The notes under the pieces were generated by a model. That model did not search any database. It saw only the letters and a program-made list of their open reading frames with translations, and was not told the origin of the DNA. A stretch of 64,000 nt of DNA, from the NCBI GenBank assembly GCA_963697765.1, contig CAVOPC010000003.1, positions 230,775-294,774 on the forward strand, given 5' to 3'. Shown one piece after another: positions 16,977 through 41,748 of this stretch. The position numbers and the translations under genes are program-made. Source of the DNA: an uncultured Actinomycetota bacterium. GTDB lineage: Bacteria; Actinomycetota; Actinomycetes; Propionibacteriales; Propionibacteriaceae. The number at the start of each line of letters is the position of its first letter. Within the stretch, counting starts at the first letter, position 1.

Positions 16977-19900
16977 TTGATCCGCCTGACCAAGCTCAGC
17001 CTGGCCAACCGCACGGTGGCGCTGCTGCTCAGCCTGCTGGCCATCGGCCTGGGCGTCTATGCCACCACCGCGCTCAAGCAGGAGTTGATCCCGTCGATCG
17101 ACGTGCCCCGCGGCAACGTGGTCGCCGTGTACCAGGGCGCCAGCCCGGACGTGGTCGAGGCCCAGGTTTCCAAGCCGATCGAGTCCGCGGTCAAGGCGGT
17201 GGACGGGGTGACCTCCGTCACCTCGACCAGTTCCAGCGGCATTTCGCAGGTGTCGGTGCAGTGGGACTACGGCATCGCCGCCGACGACATGGCCACCAAA
17301 CTGCGCAGCGCGATCGACTCGATCTCGGGCGGGCTGCCGGCCAACGTCGACCCGACCGTGATCACCGGCGGCACCGACGACATTCCAGTGGCGGTGCTGG
17401 CACTGTCCTCCGACGAAGACCTCAACACGCTCTCCGAGCAGGTCACCGACACCGTCACCCCGGAGTTGAAGTCGATTCCCGGCGTCCGCGACGTGACGGT
17501 CTCGGGCAAGGAAGTGCACGAGATCGTCATCACGTACAAGCAGTCCAAGCTGACCGAGTACGGCGTCGATCCGACCACCATCCCCCAATTTTTCGCCGCG
17601 AACTCGAGCGCGATCCCGTCCGGCACCATGCGCACCGACACCTCCAATGTGGACGTGCAGACCGGCACCACGTTCAGCACCACCGACGAGATCGCCAACC
17701 TGCGCCTGCAGGGCACGGACGGGCCGGTGAGGCTCGGCGACCTGGCCACTGTCAAGGAACAGCCGGTGGCCACCACCAGCATCTCCCGCGTCGACGGACG
17801 TGAGTCGCTGACCATCGCCATCACCAAGACCCCGGACGCGAACACCGTCACCGTGGCCCACGGCATCGCCGACAAGCTGCCTGAGCTGGAGAAGACGCTC
17901 GGTAACAACGCCAAGTTCGTCACGGTGTTCGACCAGGCCCCCTATATCGAGCAGTCCGTGCACGACCTGACCGTCGAGGGCGGCATCGGGTTGGCCATGG
18001 CGGTGCTGGTGATCCTGCTCTTTCTGCGCTCGATCCGGCCGACGCTGATCACGGCGATCTCGATTCCGCTGTCGTTGCTGATCGCCCTGATCGGCCTGTG
18101 GCTCGGCGGCTACACCCTCAACATCCTCACTCTGGCCGCGCTGACCGTTGCGATCGGACGCGTCGTCGACGACTCGATCGTGGTGATCGAGAACATCAAG
18201 CGACACCAGAGCTATGGCGAGTTCGGCACCAAATCGATCACCGGCGCCGTCCGCGAGGTCGCCGGGGCGGTGACCTCCTCGACGCTGACCACGGTCGCGG
18301 TGTTCCTGCCGATCGGTCTGGTCGGCGGCCAGGCGGGCGAGATCTTCCGTCCCTTCGCGGTCGCGGCCGTGGTGGCCCTGCTCGCGTCGCTGGTGGTGTC
18401 GCTGACCGTGGTGCCGGTGTTCGCGTCCTGGTTCATGCGACCGACAGCCAAGCAGGTGTCCAAGCTCGCTGCCGAGCACGAGTCCGAAGCCAAGGACAGC
18501 TGGCTGCAGAAGGGCTACCTGCCGGTGCTCAACTGGACCTTGGCGCACCGTTGGCTGACCCTGCTGATGGCGTTGCTGGTGTTCGCCGGGACGGTGGCGC
18601 TGGTCCCGCGGCTGAAGACGGACTTCATCGGCAGCATGGGAACCGAGAGCCTCGCCATCAAACAGGAGTTGCCACCCGGCACGGGGTTGAACGAGACCGA
18701 CAAGGCCGCCGCCCAGATCGAGGCGCTGTTGGCCGCCGACCCGTCCGTGCTGACCTACTCGACCAGTGTCGGCAGCGGAACCTCGGCGGCGCTGCTGTCC
18801 GCCCGATCGGACACCAACGAGGCCAGGTTCACCGTTCCGCTGAAGCCCGGCAGCGACGCAACCGAAACCGCCGACCGGCTGCGCCAGCAGATCGCCGAAC
18901 TCGGCTCCGACGTCGGCGAGGTCGAGGTGTCGATCGGCGCCGGCAATTCCAGCAGCGGCGTGGTGGTGTACGTGGAGAGCTCGGACCCCGACCAACTCGA
19001 GGCCGCCAACGCCTCTGTGCTGACCATGATGCAGGGCATTCCCGGCCTGACCAACGTGACCAGCGACCTGGCCGAGGCCCGCGACATGCTCGCCGTGAAC
19101 GTCAACGAGGGCAAGGCCGCCGACCAGGGCATGACCCAGGCGTCCATCGGTCAGGCGGTGGCCCGCGCCGTCCAGGGGCAGCTGATGGGCACCCTCGCTC
19201 AGGGCGACACCACCCTCAACGTGTACCTGCGGTCGCAGGCGCCGGTGCAGAACATCGACGAGCTGCGCCAGATCAAGCTGCCCGTCACCCAACTGCAGAA
19301 CGCCAACGCCAAGTCGGACGCCGCCGACAAGGTGACGGCCCGCTCCGACACGTTCTCAGCCCAATCGAAGCAGCAGCAGAGCGACGCCTACAACGACCAG
19401 GTCGCGGCATTGGAAAAGAGCCGGTCGCAGGCAGTGAAGGCGCAGGCGGCGCTGACCAAGCAGCTCGATCAGGCAAAAGAGCGGCTGTCCAGCCTGCAGA
19501 AGCAGCTGGCCGCCGCCATCAAGGCGTGCTCCGCTCCGGTGATCCCGCCGGCCGCCCCCGCCCCGGGCTGCTACCCCACGCCGATCTCGGTGTTCCAGAT
19601 CAGCCAGCAGTTGTCGGCCACGGGCGCTCAGGTGGCCCAGTTGAGCGCCGCCCTGGTCCAGACCAAGACGGGCGTGGCGAGCGTCGACAAGCAGCTGGAC
19701 GCCCTGTCGGAGCAGCGCACCAAGTCCCTGGACGCGCAGGACACCCAGGAGGAGCTGGCCCAGGCCGGAAAGGACGCGGCCAAGGCGACCGCCGACCCGT
19801 TGCGGCTCAAAGACGTCGCCTCGGTGAAGATGGTGCAGGCGCCGTCGACGATCACCCGGGTGAACGGCGTGCAGGCGGCGACCATCTCGGGCAGTTCGGA

Positions 19901-20576
19901 GTCGTCCGACCTCGGGGCGACAACCGCCGCGATCACCACGGGTGTGGCGAGTCTGGACCTGCCGGGCGGCGTGACGGTGCGGATCGGCGGGGTGTCGCAG
20001 CAGCAGCAGGAATCGTTCGCCCAACTCGGGTTGGCGATGATGGTCGCGGTCGCCGTGGTGTACCTGATCATGGTGGCCACCTTCGGGTCGCTGCTGCAGC
20101 CGCTCATCCTGCTGGTGTCGATTCCGTTCGCCGCCACCGGCGCCCTGGGGTTGTCACTGATCACCGACACGCCGTTGAGCATTGCGAGCATGATCGGCCT
20201 GTTGATGCTGATCGGCATCGTGGTGACCAACGCGATCGTGCTGATCGACCTGATCAACCAGAAGCGAAAATCGGGGTCGGGCGTGGACGCGTCCATTCAG
20301 GCGGGTGCCCGGCTGCGGGTGCGTCCGATCATGATGACGGCGTTGGCCACCATCTTCGCCCTGGTGCCGATGGCGCTGGGCCTGACCGGCGGCGGGGTGT
20401 TCATCTCCAAACCGCTGGCGATCGTCGTGATCGGCGGGCTGGTGTCGTCGACATTGCTGACCCTGATCCTGGTTCCGGTGCTCTACGACCTGCTGGAGAC
20501 CTCGCGCGAGAACGGCCGCACCAAGCGGTCGGCGCGGCGCGAGGCCAAGGCTGCGCAGCCGGCCCCTTCCGCCTGA
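16977..20576 (+). CDS. RND superfamily efflux permease (AcrB/HAE-like, 12 TM) with a ~170-aa coiled-coil insert in the second large external loop
   Basis: 1199 aa with a TTG start. The N-terminal TM1 and porter-domain pattern, and the conserved TM4/TM10 regions (AIGRVVDDSIVVIENI; GIVVTNAIVLIDLINQ), are RND-like. Residues ~772-940 are Q/A/K-rich helices with no counterpart in canonical ~1040-aa AcrB. Confidence 0.88.
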   Translation: MIRLTKLSLANRTVALLLSLLAIGLGVYATTALKQELIPSIDVPRGNVVAVYQGASPDVVEAQVSKPIESAVKAVDGVTSVTSTSSSGISQVSVQWDYGIAADDMATKLRSAIDSISGGLPANVDPTVITGGTDDIPVAVLALSSDEDLNTLSEQVTDTVTPELKSIPGVRDVTVSGKEVHEIVITYKQSKLTEYGVDPTTIPQFFAANSSAIPSGTMRTDTSNVDVQTGTTFSTTDEIANLRLQGTDGPVRLGDLATVKEQPVATTSISRVDGRESLTIAITKTPDANTVTVAHGIADKLPELEKTLGNNAKFVTVFDQAPYIEQSVHDLTVEGGIGLAMAVLVILLFLRSIRPTLITAISIPLSLLIALIGLWLGGYTLNILTLAALTVAIGRVVDDSIVVIENIKRHQSYGEFGTKSITGAVREVAGAVTSSTLTTVAVFLPIGLVGGQAGEIFRPFAVAAVVALLASLVVSLTVVPVFASWFMRPTAKQVSKLAAEHESEAKDSWLQKGYLPVLNWTLAHRWLTLLMALLVFAGTVALVPRLKTDFIGSMGTESLAIKQELPPGTGLNETDKAAAQIEALLAADPSVLTYSTSVGSGTSAALLSARSDTNEARFTVPLKPGSDATETADRLRQQIAELGSDVGEVEVSIGAGNSSSGVVVYVESSDPDQLEAANASVLTMMQGIPGLTNVTSDLAEARDMLAVNVNEGKAADQGMTQASIGQAVARAVQGQLMGTLAQGDTTLNVYLRSQAPVQNIDELRQIKLPVTQLQNANAKSDAADKVTARSDTFSAQSKQQQSDAYNDQVAALEKSRSQAVKAQAALTKQLDQAKERLSSLQKQLAAAIKACSAPVIPPAAPAPGCYPTPISVFQISQQLSATGAQVAQLSAALVQTKTGVASVDKQLDALSEQRTKSLDAQDTQEELAQAGKDAAKATADPLRLKDVASVKMVQAPSTITRVNGVQAATISGSSESSDLGATTAAITTGVASLDLPGGVTVRIGGVSQQQQESFAQLGLAMMVAVAVVYLIMVATFGSLLQPLILLVSIPFAATGALGLSLITDTPLSIASMIGLLMLIGIVVTNAIVLIDLINQKRKSGSGVDASIQAGARLRVRPIMMTALATIFALVPMALGLTGGGVFISKPLAIVVIGGLVSSTLLTLILVPVLYDLLETSRENGRTKRSARREAKAAQPAPSA

Positions 20577-32658: not shown

Positions 32659-33846
32659 TTAGGCGGGCGTTCCGGGGGTAGGGATGTCGCGCCAGAAGCA
32701 GCGGGCTGTGACGAGACGGGCCGGGTCGTAGTCGTGCCACTTGGACGGGGGAACCTCGTCGCGGCCCACCTCACGGAACCCGTTCCGCACGAAGAACCGG
32801 GCCGCGGTGTCCGAGATGGTGACGGCGAACACCGCCCGCAGGCCACGCTCACCCGCCCGGTGGACGAGCCCGTCGAGCAGCAGCGCGCCCGCGCCGGCGC
32901 CCGAGAAGGCGCTCACGGTGATCAGCCCGGACACCTCACCCACGCCGTCGGCGGTGTAGGCGTCGGTCTCGAGCCCGACGATCCCGGCCAGGTGGCCGGT
33001 GCGCAGCACCCGCGCACCCAAACCGCCGACCGCCATGCGTGCGATGTCGCTGCGGCCCCGCGGCCTGAGCACCCCGTCGGCGACGCCTCTGCTGACCAGC
33101 CCTTCGACGGCGGGAAGGTCGTCAACCCGCAACTCGTCGAGCGTCAGGTAGCCACCCAGGGTGATCAGGGTGCCGGCCCCGTCGAAGGTGAACAGTTCCA
33201 GTTCGAGATCTTCGGCGCGGCAGATGTTGACGCTGTACGCGCCCCCGCGCAACGCCGCTTCCGCAGCGGGCAACAGGTTCCCGAGGCCACGCCGAACCAA
33301 CGCGGCCAGCAGGTCGTCGTGGCACAGTTCCAGTTCGGCGAAGCTCCGCGGCGGATCACCCCAGCCGCCGCCCGGATCGGTGAGAACCACCTTGGTCGCC
33401 CTCACTCCCGCGGCGAGGATCCCGGCGGTCTCGGCGACGTCGCCGGGCTCGGCGACGGCGACCACCAGGGAGTGGTCGGCGACCGCCAGCCAGAGCCGCG
33501 TCAGGCCCTCGTCCGTCCAGGCCGCTGCCGAAGCGGCCGGCTCGGTCAGGTCGGACAGTGCGGTCAGGTCCGGCAGGGTGGCGCGAAGCCGGGAGGCGTC
33601 CACCGGGGAGCCCACGACGAGCACGAACCGGGTGTGACCCTGCGCGAATCCGGTGATCGTGCGTGAAACCGCCGCGATGCCTTCGTCGGTGAGGATCGGC
33701 AGCGCGATCACCATAGTGACGTCGCGGAACTCCTCGACGAAGAACGCGCGTTCGCCCTGCGGAATCGGCTCCGGCTCACCCCGTACAGGCATGGACGCCC
33801 TGCGTCGGCGGGGCCGCGGGCTGGTGCGTACGTCGCCGGCATCCAT
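32659..33846 (-). CDS. GNAT N-acetyltransferase with an N-terminal amino-acid-kinase-like domain (ArgA-like architecture)
   Basis: The C-terminus has GNAT motifs (GAGAGALLLDGLVHRAGERGLRAVFAVT...ARFFVRNGFREV). The N-terminal ~230 aa form a non-GNAT alpha/beta domain. The start is uncertain. Confidence 0.6.
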   Translation of the reverse strand: MDAGDVRTSPRPRRRRASMPVRGEPEPIPQGERAFFVEEFRDVTMVIALPILTDEGIAAVSRTITGFAQGHTRFVLVVGSPVDASRLRATLPDLTALSDLTEPAASAAAWTDEGLTRLWLAVADHSLVVAVAEPGDVAETAGILAAGVRATKVVLTDPGGGWGDPPRSFAELELCHDDLLAALVRRGLGNLLPAAEAALRGGAYSVNICRAEDLELELFTFDGAGTLITLGGYLTLDELRVDDLPAVEGLVSRGVADGVLRPRGRSDIARMAVGGLGARVLRTGHLAGIVGLETDAYTADGVGEVSGLITVSAFSGAGAGALLLDGLVHRAGERGLRAVFAVTISDTAARFFVRNGFREVGRDEVPPSKWHDYDPARLVTARCFWRDIPTPGTPA

Positions 33847-33967
33847 GGGGCAAGTGTGGCGCAGTCAGCGTCCGGGGCCGCAGTGTGGACAGTCCTTGAG
33901 TGCGTGAGTCGACTCGTCCGATTCGCGTCGGCCGCACCACTCGCCCGACCGGACGAACCTGAACCCG

Positions 33968-34342
33968 CTACTTCTTGGACGCCGCCACGACAGCCAGCAG
34001 ACCACCCATCATGCCCACGTTCTTCAGGAACTGGACGGTGTTCGCCTGGCGCTGCTTCGGGTCGGTGTCGTTCCAGAACGAGTGCGCGGCCAGCGTGGTC
34101 GGAATCATCGACGCCACCACGCCCGCGGCGCCGATCTTCGGCAACACGCCGGTGATCACCGACAGGCCTCCAAGCACCATCGCGGCGCCGTTGGCGCGCA
34201 CGGCGAGATCGCCGAACTCCTCAGGAATCCCGAAATCGACCGCCGTCTTGACCCGCATGCCGGGATCTTCCACGGCCTTGTAGCCGAGCCAGACGAACGG
34301 CGCGCCGATGGCGACACGGCTCAGCAGCGACACGAGCTTCAT
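33968..34342 (-). CDS. DoxX family membrane protein
   Basis: 124 aa with four hydrophobic helices. The motif AAHSFW...QFLKNVGMMGGLL is typical of DoxX. Confidence 0.8.
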   Translation of the reverse strand: MKLVSLLSRVAIGAPFVWLGYKAVEDPGMRVKTAVDFGIPEEFGDLAVRANGAAMVLGGLSVITGVLPKIGAAGVVASMIPTTLAAHSFWNDTDPKQRQANTVQFLKNVGMMGGLLAVVAASKK

Positions 34343-34442
34343 GGTTTCTGGATCCTCTCGGACGGGTGGAGGCCGCCACCTGGCGGAACGCCGCGAGCCT
34401 ACCCCGTCCGAACGGCAGCCTCAGCAATGACCGGCTCGACGC

Positions 34443-37148
34443 CTATTCAGCCGGGTCGGGCTCACCGCCCGGATCGGCGCCGGGCTGGTCCGGACGGGAC
34501 CCGGCCTCCAGTGCGGGAACCTGGATGAAGGGCAGGATCCCGAGCATCAGCAGGCAGGCTGCCCCGTACAGCAGATACAGGTCGCGGAACCCCTCGTTGA
34601 GAGTGGTCTGGTACGTCGCCTGCAGTTGCGGGCCACGGGCGTCGATCTCGGCCAGGTAGTCGGCCCGCGCCTGCTGGAACGCGGCGGGCACGGCCGCGTT
34701 CAGCACCTTGAGTTGACGTGTGGTCTCCGCAATCTCGCTGCGCGCGTCGGTGATCTCGGCGCGTGCAGCAACCAGCGAGCTTCGGGCGTGGGTCAGCTCC
34801 GAGCGCTTCCGCGTCAGGGTGGTTCGGGCGGCCAGCAGCTTGTCCCGTGCGCCGATCAGCTTGGCGCGCGCCGTGGCCAGTTCGGCCCGCTGGGTCCGCA
34901 GGTCGGCGCGCTTGGCGATCAGCGTGGTGCGCTGTGAGCTCAGCGCGGTTCGGGCGGCCGCCAGGTCGGCTCGCTGGTCGGCCAGTGTCGAGCGCTTACC
35001 GCTCAACGCGGCCCGCTTGGCAAGCAGTGGCGTCCGCTCCGCGACTCGTTCGGCCCGCTGCTGCTCGAGTGCGGCGATCGACTTCTGCAGGGCCTCGATC
35101 TGCGGCTGCAGGGCGGGGTCGCCCGCTGCCTGCAGGTGCGAAAGGGCCGCCCGCTGCTCGGCCAGGCCTCGATCGATGCCGTCGATCGCGGCGTCGAGTC
35201 CGGCGATCGGCTGACTGACCCCTGCGATCGCCGCATCAAGTCCGGTCAGGCCCTTGTCCATACCGGTGATGCCGCGCGTCATCGAGGCCCGGGCGGCGGT
35301 CATCTTTGTGATGCCGGTGGTCATTCCGTCGATGCCGCTGGTCATGCCGCGGATGCCGGACGACATCCGGGTGATCGTCGTACCCATCGACGCAAGAGCG
35401 CGGTCCATCTTTGCGATGCCCTTGGACATGCCGGCGATTCCCTTGGACATCTTCAGGATCGATTTGGTCATCGTCGCCTGGGTCTTGGCCAGCTTGGCGT
35501 CCACGGTGCCCAACTGTGTGACACCGGTTTCGACTCCACCCTGGATGTCGGCGATCACCGACGGCGTCTGGTTGTCGTACATGCGGTCGGCGACGGTCTT
35601 TGTGGCGGCCACGATGGTGGTCACGTCCGCGTTCTTCAGCAGCGTGACCAGGTCGTCCGGCAGGGTGCCGTCACCGTCGGCGGAGACGCTGATGGTGGAC
35701 TGCGCGGTCAGGTCGGGGAACTCCACACCCTTCAGCGCATCGGCGAACCGGTCGTCCGCCTTCCAGTCGGCGAACCGTTTCTGCAGGGTGGCGGCGTAGG
35801 GCAGTTCCGGTGCCGTGATGGTGGTCGGCAGGTCCGCCGTCAGCCGGTCCTGCAGGGCCAGCCCGGCGTGGGCCAGAAAGCCGACCATGATGACCGGGGC
35901 GAGCGTGGTGCCGATCGAACGGACGAGCGACAGAGTGCCGAGCGCCGAGGCCGACTCCTTGGCGGGAGTCAGCCGCAGCATCAGGTAGTTCAGCGGAGAG
36001 CCGATGATGAACCCAAGGCCGAGCCCGATCAACACCAGCGTGACGATCACGCTGGCCAGGCTGAGCGTGGGCAGCAGCCACGCAATGGCGCTGACGGCAG
36101 CCAGGGCGGAGATGGCGGCGCCGGTGCCGAGCACCCGCTTCGGGCCGAACGCGTCGGTCAGCCGTCCGGACAGCGGTGCACCGATGCCCGAGGCCAGGCC
36201 GAGGATGATGACCAGGTAGCCACCGCTGCCGCTGGGCAACTTCAGGGCGTTCTCGGCCAGTTGCGGAACGAAGACCACCCCCATCAGCACGAAACCCGAG
36301 AGCAGTGACAGCAGCAGGGTCAGGGCCACCGAACGGTCGGTGAAGTAGCCGAGGTTCAGGACGGGGTCGGCCGCCCGGCGTTCGGCCAGGATGAAGAGTG
36401 GTATCAGCACGGCCACGGCCACCAGCCACGGATACACCCCCACCGACCGCACGCTGGTGACCACGTCGAAGAAGTCCAGGTTGGTCAGCCCGTACAACAG
36501 GCACATGATGATGCCGACCAGTAACGCGGTTCCGATCAGGTCCATCGGGGCCACGTTGGCCCGGCGGTGGTCGGGCAGGACCACCAGGCCCAGCGCCACG
36601 ATGCCGATTGCGATCGGCACGTTGATGTAGAAGATCCACTGCCAGTTGTGTGTTCCCGCGACGCTCAGGATCAGGCTGCCCGCCGAGGCGCCCAACAGGT
36701 TCGCGATGCCGAACACGGCCCCGACCAGGCCCAGCGCCATGCCGCGCCGCTGGGGTGGCACCTGGGTGCCGATCTCCGCGGTCGCGATCGGCAGGATGCC
36801 GCCGCCGCCGATCGCCTGGATCACCCGCGCCACGACCAGCATGCCGAAACTGCCGGCGTCCTGCGAGAGCCCGCAGAGCAGCGATCCGAGGCCGAACAGG
36901 GCGATCGCGGTCAGGTACACGGGCTTGCGGCCGAGCCGGTCGGCAAGCTTGCCCATCACCGGGATGGCTGCGGCGTAGGCGAGGGTGTAGACGGTGATCA
37001 GCCAGACACTGAGTTGCTCGCCGACGCCGAGGTCGGTGGCGATGACGGTGCGGGCCGGTGTGACGATGCCGGTGTCGATGGCACCCATGAAGATGCCCAG
37101 CAGGTACAGCGTGATGGCGAGCGGCCAGTTGCCGCGCAGTGACTTCAT
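34443..37148 (-). CDS. DHA2-type (14-TM) MFS efflux transporter with a ~420-aa heptad-repeat insert between TM13 and TM14
   Basis: 901 aa. Residues 1-430 contain 13 hydrophobic helices with MFS motifs (GKLADRLGRKPVY; VARVIQAIGGGG). The final helix, LYLLYGAACLLMLGILPFI, is at 857-876. Residues ~432-855 are non-membrane and helical. The start overlaps the marR stop (ATGA). Confidence 0.88.
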   Translation of the reverse strand: MKSLRGNWPLAITLYLLGIFMGAIDTGIVTPARTVIATDLGVGEQLSVWLITVYTLAYAAAIPVMGKLADRLGRKPVYLTAIALFGLGSLLCGLSQDAGSFGMLVVARVIQAIGGGGILPIATAEIGTQVPPQRRGMALGLVGAVFGIANLLGASAGSLILSVAGTHNWQWIFYINVPIAIGIVALGLVVLPDHRRANVAPMDLIGTALLVGIIMCLLYGLTNLDFFDVVTSVRSVGVYPWLVAVAVLIPLFILAERRAADPVLNLGYFTDRSVALTLLLSLLSGFVLMGVVFVPQLAENALKLPSGSGGYLVIILGLASGIGAPLSGRLTDAFGPKRVLGTGAAISALAAVSAIAWLLPTLSLASVIVTLVLIGLGLGFIIGSPLNYLMLRLTPAKESASALGTLSLVRSIGTTLAPVIMVGFLAHAGLALQDRLTADLPTTITAPELPYAATLQKRFADWKADDRFADALKGVEFPDLTAQSTISVSADGDGTLPDDLVTLLKNADVTTIVAATKTVADRMYDNQTPSVIADIQGGVETGVTQLGTVDAKLAKTQATMTKSILKMSKGIAGMSKGIAKMDRALASMGTTITRMSSGIRGMTSGIDGMTTGITKMTAARASMTRGITGMDKGLTGLDAAIAGVSQPIAGLDAAIDGIDRGLAEQRAALSHLQAAGDPALQPQIEALQKSIAALEQQRAERVAERTPLLAKRAALSGKRSTLADQRADLAAARTALSSQRTTLIAKRADLRTQRAELATARAKLIGARDKLLAARTTLTRKRSELTHARSSLVAARAEITDARSEIAETTRQLKVLNAAVPAAFQQARADYLAEIDARGPQLQATYQTTLNEGFRDLYLLYGAACLLMLGILPFIQVPALEAGSRPDQPGADPGGEPDPAE
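34725..35471 (-). repeat. Two in-frame arrays of 21-nt (heptad) tandem repeats inside the MFS gene
   Basis: Array 1 (35157-35471, aa 560-664) has 15 heptads: MTKSILK MSKGIAG MSKGIAK MDRALAS MGTTITR MSSGIRG MTSGIDG MTTGITK MTAARAS MTRGITG MDKGLTG LDAAIAG VSQPIAG LDAAIDG IDRGLAE. Array 2 (34725-35018, aa 711-808) has 14 heptads: KRAALSG KRSTLAD QRADLAA ARTALSS QRTTLIA KRADLRT QRAELAT ARAKLIG ARDKLLA ARTTLTR KRSELTH ARSSLVA ARAEITD ARSEIAE. Confidence 0.9.
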
Positions 37149-37633
37149 GCCCGGCTCCCCCGCTCGGGATCGCGCAGCTGGTCGTCAAACCGTCCCAGCG
37201 CCTGGTTGACGACGCCTAGGACCCGGACGCACGCCGCCAGGTCGGCGTCGGGAAAGTCCCTTAGCGCCTCGGAGTGCAGAGTGCCCAGCGGGGTGAAGAA
37301 GTTTCTGGCCACCTCGTGGCCGTGTTCGCCGAAGCGCAGGACGACGGTACGTCGATCCGTCTGACCCCGCTCGCGGTACACGTGACCGGCGGTGGACAGC
37401 CGGTCCACGGCATAGGTGACGGCGGCTGGGGTGAGGTCGAGTTCGCCGGCCAACTGCCGCAGGGTCAGCGGCGCCCCGGCCCGGTCGGCGGCGTAGATGG
37501 CGGTGAGGGCGCGGAAGTCGGTGGGGTGCAGGCCATGGCGCGAGGCGAAGCTATGGCCCAGCCGTTCGGAGGACCAGCCCACATCACGCACCAGCTCAGC
37601 CAGCCGTCGTTCAAGGTCTCTGCGTTCCATCAC
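37145..37633 (-). CDS. MarR family transcriptional regulator (first gene of the marR-MFS operon)
   Basis: 162 aa. The winged helix is TDFRALTAIYAADRAGAPLTLRQLAGELDLTPAAVTYAVDRLSTAGHVYRERGQTDRR. Its stop overlaps the MFS start. Confidence 0.9.
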   Translation of the reverse strand: MMERRDLERRLAELVRDVGWSSERLGHSFASRHGLHPTDFRALTAIYAADRAGAPLTLRQLAGELDLTPAAVTYAVDRLSTAGHVYRERGQTDRRTVVLRFGEHGHEVARNFFTPLGTLHSEALRDFPDADLAACVRVLGVVNQALGRFDDQLRDPERGSRA

Positions 37634-37650
37634 ATCGCAAGTGTAGCCAG

Positions 37651-37663
37651 ATGATTAAATCAT
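37651..37663. promoter_or_regulatory. Perfect 13-bp AT-rich palindrome ATGATT-A-AATCAT upstream of marR
   Basis: Read directly. It lies 18 nt upstream of the marR start and is embedded in the only AT-rich patch of this intergenic region (gatgattaaatcatttgacaatc). Confidence 0.55.
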
Positions 37664-37975
37664 TTGACAATCAAGCCCTTCATGATTGCGCGTTGACTTC
37701 CACGCTTGGCCCCAGGTCGTCGGCCAGTGCGCGGGCGGCGTCGCCTGCCTGCCGCGTCGTCAACTGGCCGACGCCGCGCGCGACAGCGTGGCCGCACCGG
37801 CACTCCTCCATTGCCGCCGGTATCCCGGCCGCGGGGACATGCGCCCAGCCGTCATTCCGTGCGACCGATGCCTGATTGCGCAGTCCACGCCCTTGACGGT
37901 GGTGTTGCGGTGGTCGATCCTGGCGATACTGAGGCCTGCCAGCGACCGCGGACCGCCGATGAAGGAGGAGTCGCC

Positions 37976-38116
37976 ATGACTGAACCCGAGGGCTACCCAG
38001 AACCGGACGAAGATCGCGTCCACAGCGAGGAGCCTGCCGAGGGCGCCGAGCAGCCGGGCGAGGCTCATTCGCACCTGCCGCACGCCGAGGCCGCCGCCGA
38101 GGGCGACGACAACTGA
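37976..38116 (+). CDS. Hypothetical small acidic protein (46 aa)
   Basis: The ATG at 37976 is preceded by a strong RBS GAAGGAGGAG. The sequence is MTEPEGYPEPDEDRVHSEEPAEGAEQPGEAHSHLPHAEAAAEGDDN. It is low-complexity, so coding status is uncertain. Confidence 0.3.
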   Translation: MTEPEGYPEPDEDRVHSEEPAEGAEQPGEAHSHLPHAEAAAEGDDN

Positions 38117-38189
38117 AGCCCGCGACCACCGCTCCTTCGCCGCGCGGTGGTCAGGATGAGTGTCGGCGGGCCCACGTACAGTCTTCGCC

Positions 38190-40007
38190 ATGCCGATCGC
38201 TCCGTCCCCCCATTCCGGTATGGGTGCTGTCCCGCATCACGGCGGCGTGACGTTCCGGGTGTGGGCGCCGAACGCCGGCACCGTCCAGGTCACGGGTGAC
38301 TTTTCCGGCTGGACCTCGGCCGGCCGGGTGTCGATGGCCCCGGACCACTCCCGATCCGGCACCTGGTCGGCCTTCGTGCCCCACGCCGGCGTCGGTTCCG
38401 AGTACAAGTTCCTGATCCGCCGGGGCGGACCGTACCGATGGCGCATCGACCCGTTCGCCCGCGAACTCACACACAGCCGCGGCAACGCCGTGGTGTTCGA
38501 CCCGAAGACCCTCGACTGGGGAGAGCAGCCGTTCACCATGCCGGGGTGGGACGAACTGGTGCTGTACGAAATGCATATCGGCACCTTCGCCGCCGACGAT
38601 CACCGGCCCGGCACTTTCGGCACCGCGATCGGACGACTCGACCACCTGCAGCGGCTCGGCGTGAATGCGGTAGAGGTGATGCCACCGTTCGGGTTCGCCG
38701 GGCCGCGAAGCTGGGGGTACAACCCGTCCCACCTGTTCGCCATCGACACCAGTTACGGCGGGCCCCGGGCGTTCGCGCGGTTCGTCCGGGCCGCCCATGA
38801 ACGCGGCATCGCGGTCATCCTCGACGTGGTGCACAACCACGCCGGCCCGACCGCCCTCGATCTTTGGCGCTTCGACGGCACCTCCCGCCGCGGCTACGGT
38901 GGGCAGTACTTCTACAACGACCGGCGGGCGAACACTCCCTGGGGTGCCACCCGGCCCAACTACGACCGCAAACAGGTCCGCAACTTTCTCCGCGATTCGG
39001 CGGTGATGTGGCTGGAGGACTTCCAGGTCGACGGCCTGCGCTTCGACGGCACCAACTACATCCGGTCCCGCTGGGGCAACGTTCACCACCGGCCGGACCG
39101 GATCGCCGGCGGCCATCGCTACCTGGCCGCGACCACGGCAGACATCGCAGCCCGGCAACCCTGGAAGCTGCTGATCGCCGAAGACATGCAACGTGACCCC
39201 GTGGTCACCACGCCGACCGAACACGGCGGGCTCGGTTTCCACTCGCAGTGGGACGCCGACTTCGTCCATCCGGTCCGGCGCGCCCTGGAAACACCGTGGG
39301 ACGCCGACCGCGACACGGCGGCCGTCGCCCGGGCCGTCACCGGCCACTATGTGCGGGCCGCCCATGAACGGGTCATCTTCACCGAGTCGCACGACGAGGT
39401 CGCCAACGGCCGGTCACGACTGCCCGAGACGATCAACCCGGGTGCCGCCGACTCCTGGCCGTCCCGCAAGCGGGCCACTCTTGCTCTGGCCCTTGTGCTC
39501 ACCTCGGCCGGCATGCCGCTGATCTTTCAGGGTCAGGAGTTCTGCGAAGACCGCTGGTTCGACGACCGCGTCCCGCTGTCGTGGAACAAGGCGCAGCGGA
39601 ACGCGGACTTCCTGCAGCTGGCACGCCAGCTGATCCGGCTCCGCCGGAACCTGGACGGTGAGACGGCCGGTCTTCGCGGACCGCACACCGCCTTGATCCG
39701 GGTGGACGACCAACACAAGGTGCTGGCGTATCACCGGTGGTGGCATGGCGGAGCGCGTGACGACGTCGTGGTCGCGGTCAACCTGTCCACCCAGGTCGTC
39801 CACGGCTACCGGGTGGGCCTCCCTCGAGAAGGCAACTGGCGATTGCGGTGCAACACGGACGCCCCTATGTTCGGCCACGACTTCGGCGTGGCACACGCCA
39901 CCGACCTGCACGCCGCACCAAGCCCGTGGGACGGGCAACAGTTCTCGGCCGAACTCACGATCGGGCCATACGCCGCGCTGATCTACTCCCAAGACGTGAC
40001 TTCTTGA
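38190..40007 (+). CDS. GH13 alpha-amylase-family enzyme with N-terminal CBM48 (alpha-glucan branching-enzyme-like)
   Basis: GVTFRVWAPNAGTVQVTGDFSGW (CBM48/E-set), YEMHIGTF, ILDVVHNHAG, VDGLRFDGTNY and FTESHDEV are GH13 conserved regions. The start is ATG 38190 or GTG 38160. Confidence 0.8.
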   Translation: MPIAPSPHSGMGAVPHHGGVTFRVWAPNAGTVQVTGDFSGWTSAGRVSMAPDHSRSGTWSAFVPHAGVGSEYKFLIRRGGPYRWRIDPFARELTHSRGNAVVFDPKTLDWGEQPFTMPGWDELVLYEMHIGTFAADDHRPGTFGTAIGRLDHLQRLGVNAVEVMPPFGFAGPRSWGYNPSHLFAIDTSYGGPRAFARFVRAAHERGIAVILDVVHNHAGPTALDLWRFDGTSRRGYGGQYFYNDRRANTPWGATRPNYDRKQVRNFLRDSAVMWLEDFQVDGLRFDGTNYIRSRWGNVHHRPDRIAGGHRYLAATTADIAARQPWKLLIAEDMQRDPVVTTPTEHGGLGFHSQWDADFVHPVRRALETPWDADRDTAAVARAVTGHYVRAAHERVIFTESHDEVANGRSRLPETINPGAADSWPSRKRATLALALVLTSAGMPLIFQGQEFCEDRWFDDRVPLSWNKAQRNADFLQLARQLIRLRRNLDGETAGLRGPHTALIRVDDQHKVLAYHRWWHGGARDDVVVAVNLSTQVVHGYRVGLPREGNWRLRCNTDAPMFGHDFGVAHATDLHAAPSPWDGQQFSAELTIGPYAALIYSQDVTS

Positions 40008-40060: not shown

Positions 40061-40525
40061 TCAGCGGGGGACGATACCTGGAATCTCGTCGCGAAGTCGG
40101 TCGGTGACGGTACGCATGCGCTCGAGGACGACGCCCATGGACGCAAGCACGGCGTCGTCCACACCGTCGAACACCATGCCGGCGGTCGCGACAAGCGGTG
40201 CGTAGTAGGCGTAGGTGGTGCGGGATCCCTCGGCGGTGAACCGCACCAGAACCTTGCGCCGGTCGCCCTCGTCCGCGCTGCGCTCCACCCACCCGCGGGC
40301 AGCGAGCCGGTCGATGAGAGCCGTGGTGGCCGCCGGCCGCAGCCCCGTCGACGCGGCGAGTTCTCCGGCCGTCGCCGGCCCTTCGGCGAGGCGGTCCAGG
40401 CAACGCACCTCTGCGGAGCCTAGGCCCAGGGCGCGGCCGACGGCGTCGTCGTAGGCGTGCACCGCGCGCTGGTAGCGCTGCAGCTCGACGCCCAGGTTTG
40501 CGATGAGTTGAGTACGTTGCGACAT
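40061..40525 (-). CDS. MarR family transcriptional regulator
   Basis: EVRCLDRLAEGPATAGELAASTGLRPAATTALIDRLAARGWVERSADEGDRRKV. I prefer the start at ATG 40525 (MSQRTQL) because it leaves the palindrome in the intergenic region. Confidence 0.85.
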   Translation of the reverse strand: MSQRTQLIANLGVELQRYQRAVHAYDDAVGRALGLGSAEVRCLDRLAEGPATAGELAASTGLRPAATTALIDRLAARGWVERSADEGDRRKVLVRFTAEGSRTTYAYYAPLVATAGMVFDGVDDAVLASMGVVLERMRTVTDRLRDEIPGIVPR

Positions 40526-40534
40526 GTGGTATCT

Positions 40535-40547
40535 TTCGATCATCGAA
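40535..40547. promoter_or_regulatory. Perfect 13-bp palindrome TTCGAT-C-ATCGAA between divergent marR and the monooxygenase gene
   Basis: Read directly in the short (~47 nt) divergent intergenic region. It is a likely MarR operator. Confidence 0.55.
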
Positions 40548-40572
40548 CTATTTGGAAATCGTAGGAGTTGCC

Positions 40573-41748
40573 ATGAGGATAGTCGTCGTCGGCGCCGGTG
40601 TAGCCGGATCCGCGGTTGCGCTGGCCGCTGCCCGCGTCGGGCACGAGGTGATCCTTCTCGAACGCCGCCCCTCGCTCGACGCGAAGGCGGGCTCGTGGAT
40701 CACCCTGGCGCCCAACGGCCTTGACGCGCTCGACGTGCTCGGCGTCAGTGACGATTGGAGCGAGGGCGGCGCGCCGACCCGGGCGAACCGGATGTTCGAC
40801 GCTCGCGACAGGCTGCTCGGCGAGGTCACGATCGGCACGCCGCTCGTGGACGGCCGGGTGGGCCTCACCATCCGGCGTTCCGCCCTGTCGACGTGCCTCG
40901 CTCGACAGGCCGCGGCTGTCGGGGCGGAACTGCGGCTGGGGGCAGTCGTCGAAGCGGTCGAGCTGGACGGCCCGCGGCCCGCGGCGATCGTCGCGGGAGA
41001 ACGAATCGAGGCCGACCTACTGATCGGTGCCGACGGTGTCTGGTCACGCGTCCGACGGGCGATCGATCCGGCTGCCCCGGTCCCGAGGTATACCGGGCTG
41101 CTCAACTTCGGCGGCATCGTGGACGCCCCTGAACTCGCCCGATCGCTCGAGCCCGCGGCGTGGCACTTCGTCTTCGGCACCCGGGCGTTCGTCGGGGCAC
41201 ATCCGCTGCCGACGGGTGAAATCGTCTGGTTCGTGAATCTGCCGGGAGACCTCGTCCCGACGAAGGAGCGCTCCACGACATCGGACGACGTCTGGCGCGA
41301 GCGACTGCTCGAGGCCGTGCGGGAAGACCAGGGCGTCGCCGCTGAGTTGATCCGTCGCGGACGGTTCGAACTTGTGGCCGACAGCACGCACGACCTGCCC
41401 ACCGTTCCCATCTGGTCGCGCGGTGGTGCGGTGCTCATCGGAGACGCGGTGCACGCGCCCTCGCCAAGCTCGGGTCAGGGGGCGTCGCTGGCGCTAGAGG
41501 ACGCCGTCGAACTCGTCCGGGCCCTCGGGTCAGCGTCGAATCCGGACGAACGGGACTCAGCGCTGGCAGCGTTCGAGGCGACGCGACGTCCCCGGGTCGA
41601 GCGCGTCGTGCGCAATGGCGCCCGGTCCGGCAGTTCGAAGCTGCCGACCGGAGTCGGGCGGGTGCTCATGGACGGAATGCTCACGCTGCTGTTCCGTTCC
41701 GGATTCGCCGCGCGCGAGGTGCTGGCGACCACCGCACACCGGCTCTAG
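40573..41748 (+). CDS. FAD-dependent monooxygenase (salicylate/aromatic hydroxylase-like)
   Basis: ATG 40573. The dinucleotide-binding motif is MRIVVVGAGVAGSAVALAAARVGHEV, followed by the later motifs ADLLIGADGVWSRVR and LIGDAVHAPSPSSGQGASLALEDA. Confidence 0.88.
   Translation: MRIVVVGAGVAGSAVALAAARVGHEVILLERRPSLDAKAGSWITLAPNGLDALDVLGVSDDWSEGGAPTRANRMFDARDRLLGEVTIGTPLVDGRVGLTIRRSALSTCLARQAAAVGAELRLGAVVEAVELDGPRPAAIVAGERIEADLLIGADGVWSRVRRAIDPAAPVPRYTGLLNFGGIVDAPELARSLEPAAWHFVFGTRAFVGAHPLPTGEIVWFVNLPGDLVPTKERSTTSDDVWRERLLEAVREDQGVAAELIRRGRFELVADSTHDLPTVPIWSRGGAVLIGDAVHAPSPSSGQGASLALEDAVELVRALGSASNPDERDSALAAFEATRRPRVERVVRNGARSGSSKLPTGVGRVLMDGMLTLLFRSGFAAREVLATTAHRL

Follow-up and report, generated by a model that had tools for sequence, protein, structure and literature searches.

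A DHA2-type exporter gene of the Propionibacteriaceae with a predicted heptad-built helical stalk outside the membrane

The window analysed here, a stretch of 64,000 nucleotides from an uncultured Actinomycetota bacterium of the family Propionibacteriaceae (assembly GCA_963697765.1, contig CAVOPC010000003.1, positions 230,775 to 294,774), encodes a 901-residue protein which, on the evidence of sequence and structural models, is a DHA2-type exporter of the major facilitator superfamily (MFS), similar to EmrB, QacA and Rv1410. A large insert separates its thirteenth and fourteenth transmembrane helices (TM13 and TM14), and this insert is predicted to face the outside of the cell and to fold as a very long antiparallel two-helix hairpin. 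Both the pump family and the element itself are known; the stalk would be an extreme and apparently undescribed form of the latter. The architecture, comprising the DHA2 identity, the outside topology, the hairpin, the variation of its length by heptads and the linkage to a MarR-family regulator, is considered firm at the level of sequence and models. That the stalk spans the cell wall and takes part in export is suggested by analogy with better known systems. The parts of the gene, in window positions, are as follows.

34443..37148, reverse strand: DHA2-type MFS exporter gene with the stalk insert, an intact open reading frame of 901 amino acids
35835..37148, reverse strand: MFS core, TM1–TM13, residues 1–438 (Pfam, TIGR00711, Foldseek, AlphaFold2 helices)
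35616..35834, reverse strand: base (N-module) of the insert, residues 439–511, a predicted small alpha/beta unit (AlphaFold2, homologue alignment)
35124..35615, reverse strand: predicted ascending helix (arm 1), residues 512–675 (AlphaFold2, heptad analysis)
35115..35123, reverse strand: predicted hairpin tip, G676-D677-P678, the sole helix break in both AlphaFold2 models
34638..35114, reverse strand: predicted descending helix (arm 2), residues 679–837 (AlphaFold2, heptad analysis)
34524..34634, reverse strand: predicted C-module helix running into TM14, residues 839–875, with TM14 at about 857–875 (AlphaFold2)
34443..34523, reverse strand: C-terminal tail, residues 876–901, and stop codon; predicted cytoplasmic, predicted local distance difference test score (pLDDT) below 50

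A DHA2-TYPE CORE WITH AN OUTWARD-FACING INSERT

The membrane domain is recognised without difficulty by the Pfam model MFS_1, which covers residues 16–418 (E = 1.8e-51; 175.5 bits against a cutoff of 33.4). Of the NCBIfam models TIGR00711 (DHA2/EmrB) fits best, but at 201 bits it falls below its curated cutoff of 230.2; residues 15–418 match model positions 7–405 of 485 and the last ~80 positions are unmatched, a shortfall that probably arises because the 420-residue insert separates TM14 from the rest of the domain and not because the protein belongs to a different family. Hydropathy and the AlphaFold2 secondary structure agree on 14 membrane helices, 13 before residue ~438 and one at ~857–875, as the original prediction, made from the sequence alone, had described. 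Motif A (GKLADRLGRKP, residues 66–76) lies in the TM2–TM3 loop, and its residues G66, K67, A69, D70, R71, G73 and R74 are invariant in an alignment of 119 full-length homologues drawn from the best hits of a full-protein search. In a Foldseek search the core had target-normalised TM-scores of 0.70–0.76 to MHAS2168, EmrB, EfpA and QacA, the best structural match being the lipid exporter MHAS2168 (8pnl; E = 7e-17, 29% identity), and the nearest solved relatives by both sequence and fold are EmrB (8zal), MHAS2168 (8pnl), QacA (7y58) and EfpA. The whole model matched MFS cores only. From DHA2 membership, drug/H+ antiport activity would be expected.

Several markers point to an insert lying outside the cell. 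Motif A is cytoplasmic in MFS proteins, and eleven helices lie between its loop and the insert. In the homologues TM14 is followed directly by Arg/Lys clusters (consensus RR; PSKRK; RKK), which fits a cytoplasmic C-terminus; the tail of the present protein is acidic, not basic. Long Pro/Thr/Ser/Glu-rich linkers, of a kind typical of secreted actinobacterial proteins, occur in several homologues exactly at the hairpin tip. Finally, the TM13–TM14 loop is extracellular in QacA as solved by cryo-EM. The outward-facing TM13–TM14 loop of the original prediction is thus supported by the position of motif A, the helix count, the basic clusters and tip linkers of the homologues, and the QacA loop.

ARCHITECTURE OF THE STALK

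Two AlphaFold2 runs yielded the same hairpin. The full-protein run, which used the alignment of 119 homologues, returned a mean pLDDT of 86.3 and a predicted template modelling score of 0.68, with the arms at pLDDT 75–83, continuous helices at residues 512–675 and 678–837 and a two-residue break at G676-D677. The insert alone, modelled with a separate 14-sequence alignment, had the same boundaries and a mean pLDDT of 89.4, the arms reaching 94–98. The 46-residue connector originally placed between the two arrays is accordingly absent from the models, where this segment is modelled as helix belonging to the arms, and only G676-D677(-P678) breaks the helix. Among the matches listed in a Foldseek search with the insert model there are only long antiparallel coiled coils (Rad50, SMC arms, the chemoreceptor 2ch7, Tc toxins and alpha-pore-forming toxins), and no adaptor, EsaA or MmpL fold is found among the 50 matches listed. 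A phmmer search of the insert against Protein Data Bank (PDB) sequences returned nothing meaningful, and no similarity of the insert to QacA.

The two ends of the insert behave differently from the arms that they bracket. The base is modelled with strands at 443–445 and 485–487 and helices at 452–472 and 498–506, matches no Pfam or NCBIfam model, and has L440, P441, L449, P450, L500, D508 and T510 invariant in the 119 homologues; the C-module helix (839–874) is modelled at pLDDT 92–98, and V820, F824, Y831 and G853 of the C-module are invariant in the same set. The base segment (residues 433–545) is nearly constant at 111–117 residues, and the C-module segment (816–853) is exactly 38 residues long in all 119, whereas the arms range from 85 to 162 (arm 1) and from 80 to 157 residues (arm 2) and co-vary in length (r = 0.96). 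Total coil lengths cluster in 7-residue steps (188, 202, 209, 216). Moreover, the positions of all arm-1 Met and arm-2 Leu residues sum to 1352, which places the two arrays in phase for antiparallel pairing about residue 676, and this symmetry centre of the heptad phases is also the helix break of the model. Covariation, mirror-symmetric phases, the two models and the Foldseek matches therefore agree on the antiparallel hairpin that had been proposed at the outset.

With helices of 164 and 160 residues at 1.5 Å per residue, the stalk would measure about 24–26 nm, which is longer than the 15–18 nm first estimated. For the host family (Propionibacteriaceae, with relatives in Bacillota) one membrane under a thick wall is to be expected, so the stalk is more aptly compared with the thickness of the peptidoglycan than with the 'actinobacterial envelope' that had served as yardstick. 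Gram-positive walls are tens of nanometres thick.

The arms are built from uninterrupted heptads, which occupy much of an insert first delimited at 34584–35855 (residues 432–855). The arm-1 array (residues 561–665; 35154–35468, reverse strand) consists of 15 heptads of the type G-I-A-G-M-D-K; Met recurs at one heptad position 11 times running (M560 to M630), Ile/Leu stands three residues before it and Gly occupies two further positions. Both the 15 heptads and the run of 11 Met had been read correctly. The arm-2 array (residues 708–812; 34713–35027, reverse strand) is of the type L-A-A-x-R-A-x, with Leu/Ile at position 1 in 15/15 heptads and Arg at position 5 in 14/15; here the x-R-x-x-L-x-x pattern noticed originally is confirmed, and the count rises from 14 heptads to 15. 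When the counts of the commonest residue are added up over the heptad positions, each arm scores 53, compared with 25 ± 2 (maximum 35) for arm 1 and 30 ± 2 (maximum 39) for arm 2 in 5000 composition-preserving shuffles.

At the DNA level the arrays keep a strict 21-nucleotide phase, as had been noted, with a lag-21 identity of 0.51–0.52, where other lags give about 0.3 and the MFS core 0.33. They are not, however, near-perfect repeats: adjacent 21-nucleotide units are ~52% identical, and Tandem Repeats Finder detects two short stretches only (35075–35114 and 35310–35359). Recent or near-perfect DNA repetition was rejected on both counts, and the low unit identity together with the sparse Tandem Repeats Finder signal indicates old, diverged repeats kept by selection on the protein. 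The strand opposite the arm-1 array holds an open frame of 181 residues (35254–35799, forward strand) with a GC content at third codon positions (GC3) of 0.90 and a periodic 'MP' pattern; it is a side effect of the repeat by which gene callers could be misled.

The same heptads are found throughout the family. In arm 1 the consensus (positions g-a-b-c-d-e-f) is G/A, I/L, A, G, M/L, D/T, K, with Met at d in 58% and Gly/Ala at g in 80%; Gly alone accounts for 55% at c and 47% at g, and 98.5% of arm-1 Met residues fall in one heptad phase. Gly makes up 15% of arm 1 compared with 3% of arm 2. In arm 2, position a is Leu in 76% and e is Arg in 70%, while d is A/Q/K; this helix is positively charged (net +15 in the present protein, family median +8). 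In antiparallel coiled coils a lies opposite d' and e opposite e', and the registers of the two arms fit this rule: Met (d) would lie opposite Leu (a'), Ile (a) opposite a small or polar d', and Arg (e') would face Asp/Thr (e). What had been called an unusual pairing of a Met-lined with an Arg/Leu-lined helix therefore seems, by heptad register, to be ordinary antiparallel complementarity. The oddity that remains is the conserved Gly at two arm-1 positions, an unusual feature that would leave a bare patch beside the Met seam.

A NATURAL SERIES OF STALK LENGTHS

The full-protein search returned 2963 clusters at E ≤ 1e-10. The best 120 of these are 810–1016 residues long, one partial sequence apart, and named entries among them are called 'MFS transporter' or 'EmrB/QacA' only. 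The architecture is kept in the 119 full-length homologues, which have inserts of 339–523 residues (~420 in the present protein), and homologues occur in two phyla. The insert alone matched 86 of 1.84 billion representatives (50% identity clusters) at E ≤ 1e-10, many of them fragments; a separate homologue search with the insert alone yielded 7 proteins only, probably because low-complexity words filled the candidate list. Scanning GTDB genomes with a profile of the base module identified 75 loci, most of them in the Propionibacteriaceae (Micropruina, Propionicimonas, Propioniciclava, Nigerium, Arachnia), many members of which come from wastewater and anaerobic-digester metagenomes. The other loci belong to Actinomycetaceae, Dermatophilus, two Corynebacterium and Bacillota (Clostridiales oral taxon 876, Ca. 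Clostridium radicumherbarum, Cellulosilyticaceae).

Relatives of graded size, from 536 to 1017 residues, lack blocks that are symmetric about the tip. The series descends through Bacillota (~831), the metagenome assembly L061 (749), Arcanobacterium (693–709), Varibaculum and Mobiluncus (632–659) and Corynebacterium (597–619) to Syntrophomonas and a Bacillota metagenome-assembled genome (MAG) at 536–548 residues. The two base helices, TADVTTIV... and ...IExxFQxxLNxGF, persist down to the shortest relatives; stalkless relatives have these two helices only, and keep the motif IExxFQxxLNxGF. A short hairpin was probably there first, and the stalk would have been extended outward from it. The graded variation in insert length is what the original prediction had proposed to survey for; the short essential element already known at this site in other pumps had been overlooked.

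The tip itself is variable: its aligned segment can be as short as 13 and as long as 196 residues, and Pro-rich turns occur there in homologues. Many share a conserved Pro-rich tip, LPPGTPEPP, and the longest tip linkers are found, for example, in P0106 (L068 6741–9791), a protein of 1016 residues from a Dermatophilus congolensis MAG.

Some database entries and model matches were set aside. Proteins of ~460 residues (P0121–P0125) might have represented a split or independent stalk protein, and were rejected as truncated or frameshifted calls of the MFS family: in L001 (1–1993) an MFS fragment lies directly upstream, and others begin at contig ends or are frameshifted. These entries have been misnamed from coiled-coil similarity as 'peptidoglycan hydrolase CwlO-like', 'septal ring factor EnvC' and 'DUF342 coiled-coil protein'. 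Matches of homologues to PF24161 (CCDC39), PF25994 (HH_AprE, faint) and PF28019 (HmpF, weak) are generic coiled-coil matches and do not define a dedicated family, and P0142, a 2734-residue representative match, is an unrelated SGVPNQS repeat protein.

THE OPERON AND ITS SURROUNDINGS

The pump is the second gene of a two-gene unit, the other features of which are these.

37145..37633, reverse strand: MarR-family transcriptional regulator of 162 amino acids, first gene of the unit (Pfam)
37155..37160, reverse strand: GGGGAG, Shine-Dalgarno-like, read from the sequence; putative ribosome-binding role

The regulator matches Pfam MarR_2 (5e-12) and MarR (8e-9). Its TGA overlaps the ATG of the pump gene in the tetranucleotide ATGA at 37145–37148, and the GGGGAG lies 6 nucleotides upstream of the pump ATG, within the end of the MarR gene, so that the pump is probably translationally coupled to the regulator. 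A promoter and terminator scan of 33800–38200 found nothing. The GC3 of the pump gene is 0.89, a codon bias that is that of a real gene, and a 99%-identical protein from a Micropruina sp. MAG is entered as 'MFS transporter'.

Of 60 related loci, at least 22 have a MarR homologue directly upstream and on the same strand, and one is also present at locus L077. In five loci, including that of a Bacillota MAG (L044), a small conserved upstream protein is found, which on reading its sequence is putatively TetR-like. No conserved neighbour other than the regulator was found at 66 loci (65 public and the window). The remaining neighbours represent chromosomal synteny (glycogen genes, thioredoxin/TPR, phosphoglucomutase), and among the recurrent neighbour clusters, which were read by eye from representative sequences with Pfam run on some neighbours, no adaptor, lipoprotein, ABC (ATP-binding cassette) or MmpS-like partner is conserved.

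Around the unit the window encodes a DoxX protein directly downstream of the pump (33968–34342), a GNAT-domain protein (32659–33846) and a GlgB-like branching enzyme (38160–40007). Three kilobases from the pump operon a second MarR-family regulator (40061–40543, reverse strand) is divergent to an FAD-dependent monooxygenase (40552–41748, forward strand). Further away lies an AcrB-type transporter from the RND (resistance-nodulation-division) superfamily (16977–20576, forward strand; 1199 residues; Pfam ACR_tran, 707 bits, and MMPL). It has an insert of its own, ~150 residues at about 770–930, which reads as an antiparallel coiled-coil hairpin with a Pro-rich tip between two Cys residues (...AAAIKA-C-SAPVIPPAAPAPG-C-YPTP...), the tip design being that of the disulfide-capped coiled-coil domain of MmpL5. 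One window of 64 kb thus holds pumps of two superfamilies, each with a putative extracytoplasmic helical stalk.

WHAT THE STALK MAY DO

The reading favoured here, tentatively and at somewhat less than an even chance, is that the stalk works as a single hairpin within export. The protein would be a MarR-controlled, proton-coupled DHA2 exporter whose last outer element has been lengthened by heptads added at the tip, giving a two-helix coiled coil that would rise straight from TM14 and a small conserved base. The Ile/Met seam of the ascending helix would pack on the Leu/small-residue seam of the descending helix, with the Arg residues of the latter facing the Asp/Thr of the former. The conserved base would close and open the outer gate and receive substrate, as is known for the outer element of DHA2 pumps, and the stalk would extend the reach of the pump across the inner wall zone and the peptidoglycan of a single-membrane, thick-walled bacterium. 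It would serve as an amphipathic track or hand-off device by which hydrophobic or amphipathic cargo is kept from returning to the membrane.

Several considerations weigh against such a role. Small hydrophilic drugs cross peptidoglycan unguided, and a part in the substrate path therefore presumes hydrophobic cargo. The tip is unconserved and can carry long disordered inserts, which suggests that it does not dock on a specific partner. The pairing of the arms was derived from heptad phases and standard antiparallel rules, not from model coordinates. Lastly, Gly occupies two arm-1 heptad positions family-wide, at a cost to the helix and with no obvious need for it in a hairpin, a hint of another packing partner that would favour assembly into an oligomer.

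In an oligomeric conduit several pumps (e.g., three) would bring their hairpins together into an antiparallel alpha-helical barrel with a narrow Met/Ile-lined lumen, through which cargo would pass. Such a structure, which is rather unlikely on present evidence, would be convergent with the MmpL5 tube and functionally equivalent to the EmrA hairpin barrel of EmrAB-TolC. It has a precedent in MmpL5, where a coiled-coil insert modelled as a Met-lined six-helix barrel is needed for efflux, and the RND pump in the window also has its own coiled-coil hairpin. Met keeps to one heptad position family-wide with small residues flanking it, and designed barrel-forming heptads likewise put small residues beside the core. 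Among PDB sequences the insert profile finds its best matches in sc-apCC-6 proteins (9r1o, 6.5e-8; 8qae, 2e-6; 8qad), which are designed single-chain antiparallel six-helix barrels, and the MMPL model TIGR00833 weakly matches 5 of 15 family inserts (best 1.3e-4; E = 0.012 in the present protein, to arm 1). These barrel and MMPL matches are only suggestive, because coiled-coil profile matches depend heavily on composition and periodicity. Against a conduit, the monomer model is already a confident closed two-helix hairpin with Met in its own core, and the descending helix, with one large hydrophobic residue per heptad and a conserved Arg, has a poor pattern for a barrel. Moreover, MFS pumps are usually monomers, and EmrB is a monomer inside the EmrA hexamer. 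It is also hard to see how several outward-facing cavities would feed one central tube, and the tips carry large disordered inserts. The more specific proposal that the stalks assemble a Met-lined barrel forming a one-gene trans-wall conduit for hydrophobic cargo, evolved independently of MmpL5 and of the Gram-negative adaptors, is judged distinctly unlikely.

The same insert profile, at positions 107–201 (the arm-1 region), also matches residues 347–441 of 8qox_B, a 475-residue 'conserved membrane protein' (E = 4e-5).

Alternatively, and again with doubtful prospects, the stalk could stand off the substrate path of a pump that exports small drugs in the manner of QacA, and serve as a variable-length spacer, an anchor, a sensor of wall state or a rod exploited by phages, as Pip and YueB are. 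It might tether the pump through its basic descending helix (median +8), which would suit anionic wall polymers, or relay the state of the wall to the gate through the base. The main ground for such a role lies in close relatives that do with hardly any stalk or none at all: length varies by heptads among them, and the stalk-poor ones keep core and regulator, from which it appears that the stalk is dispensable for the basic transport cycle in the clade. The unconserved tip, often with Pro/Thr-rich linkers typical of exposed wall-spanning segments, and the allosteric action of the corresponding loop in QacA, which is not a path, are in accord with it. However, a mere spacer would not call for so specific and strongly conserved a Met/Gly pattern on one helix, Pfam and NCBIfam scans found no LysM, SH3 or peptidoglycan-binding domain, and nothing points to phage involvement.

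That the insert is an artefact or cytoplasmic, or reflects a fusion, a misassembly or a decaying pseudogene, is most improbable: the acidic C-terminal tail and the database entries that show the insert as a separate ~460-residue protein could be cited for it, but those entries are truncated gene calls, the open reading frame is intact with the codon bias of a real gene, the 119 full-length homologues keep the architecture, homologues occur in two phyla and all topology markers point outside.

IMPLICATIONS

The usual picture of a Gram-positive efflux pump has it end at the membrane surface. This picture is contradicted by work of 2023–2026, with the outer elements of QacA and Rv1410 being essential and the MmpL5 tube reaching the wall. 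The stalk family joins both ideas, in that an essential outer element of an MFS pump would here be stretched, heptad by heptad, to the thickness of the wall. The natural series of lengths, from no stalk to ~29 nm across related genera, amounts to a ready-made experiment on the role of the stalk, and could show whether its length goes with the thickness of the wall. Should the stalk have a part in export, the view of drug, lipid and metabolite efflux through thick walls would change, and the pump would offer a surface-exposed target. If the Met-lined barrel were true, it would follow that bacteria with a single membrane make dedicated channels for export through peptidoglycan.

COMPARISON WITH KNOWN SYSTEMS

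No MFS or DHA2 pump with a coiled-coil stalk is described in the family databases or literature searched, which agrees with the original prediction that such a pump had not been characterised. Known systems nevertheless resemble it in part.

The [M/L]-x-x-G-[I/L]-x-x heptads recall those of YhgE/Pip, EsaA/YueB and FtsX/MacB-type proteins, which are likewise Gram-positive membrane proteins with long extracellular helical regions, but which have different membrane domains. The heptad motif [M/L]-x-x-G behind the original comparison with YhgE/Pip and EsaA is real; a family link is not supported. TIGR03057 matched neither the whole protein nor the insert at E ≤ 1, nor arm 1 at E ≤ 10, and is not among the 25 families listed for the 15 family inserts, yet it scores the positive controls P0208 and P0202 at 29.3 and 19.7 bits against a cutoff of 18.6, so that the likeness probably amounts to a shared heptad style. 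Pfam and NCBIfam matches include no YhgE/Pip or EsaA domain model. Membership of either family was rejected on account of these unmatched models, the MFS membrane domain and the lack of a type VII secretion or ABC context among the recurrent neighbour clusters read. The two controls, which are remote matches of the insert, are FtsX/MacB-type ABC permeases (P0202, 1294 residues; P0208, 1493 residues), AT-rich and Firmicute-like by sequence, with extracellular coiled coils of several hundred residues whose I-x-x-G-L heptads match TIGR03057; stalks of such heptad style seem to recur in several Gram-positive transporter superfamilies.

The emrRAB operon likewise places a MarR-type regulator with a DHA2 pump, here together with EmrA. 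In EmrAB-TolC a long alpha-helical hairpin is thus tied to a DHA2 pump under a MarR-type regulator, as in the stalk pump. The hairpin of Aquifex EmrA measures 127 Å (PMC4158417). EmrA forms a hexameric barrel from its hairpins, which docks to TolC, and EmrB is a monomer inside the EmrA hexamer, into which it docks via a periplasmic helix bundle. However, EmrA, with its lipoyl and beta-barrel domains, is a protein of its own, whereas the hairpin of the stalk pump is part of the pump itself, which has neither domain and no outer-membrane partner. Matches to HlyD-family adaptor and hairpin models remain below threshold (TIGR01843, 16 bits against a cutoff of 209; a faint PF25994 HH_AprE match in a homologue).

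MmpL5 carries a 196-residue antiparallel coiled-coil insert, modelled as a trimeric six-helix tube of ~13 nm with a lumen of 7–9 Å 'lined with methionine residues', which reaches the peptidoglycan layer and the deletion of which abolishes efflux. MmpL4 and MmpL5 are like the stalk pump in being proton-driven exporters of Actinomycetota with a heptad-based antiparallel coiled-coil hairpin in an extracytoplasmic loop, rich in Met at core or lumen positions. MmpL5 differs in belonging to the RND superfamily, in its disulfide-capped tip, in its need for MmpS5 and in its modelled trimeric state, whereas the stalk pump has an MFS core and no Cys at its tip; neither the recurrent neighbour clusters nor the genes with Pfam annotation at L077 include an MmpS-like protein. 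By analogy the Met-lined tube of MmpL5 is the closest functional parallel of the Met ladder, and a striking one.

The closest relatives by architecture are nevertheless to be found among the MFS pumps. In QacA of S. aureus, extracellular loop 7 (EL7) is a helical hairpin of 27 residues (441–467) that folds back toward the membrane and contacts EL1; its deletion abolishes efflux, it acts allosterically and not as a path, and it is 'conserved in a subset of DHA2 transporters'. In Rv1410 and MHAS2168 the last two helices extend ~20 Å into the periplasm, an extension which guides triacylglyceride to LprG and the truncation of which abolishes lipid transport. The stalk pump has the features of the QacA subset (LfrA/SmvA), being a 14-TM DHA2 protein with a predicted helix-turn-helix outside the cell on extensions of TM13 and TM14, and differs in its length: the short hairpin of 25–40 residues is replaced by ~420 residues, with a separate conserved base and a heptad stalk of ~25 nm, against ~27 residues in EL7. 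Rv1410/MHAS2168 combines the best structural match of the core with a required outer extension of the last two helices, but that extension is of 31–38 residues, about 2 nm against about 25 nm, and Rv1410 needs its operon partner LprG, whereas no lipoprotein or other partner is conserved beside the stalk pumps. Taken together, sequence and models indicate that the stalk is the QacA EL7/Rv1410 site, enlarged about 15-fold by added heptads.

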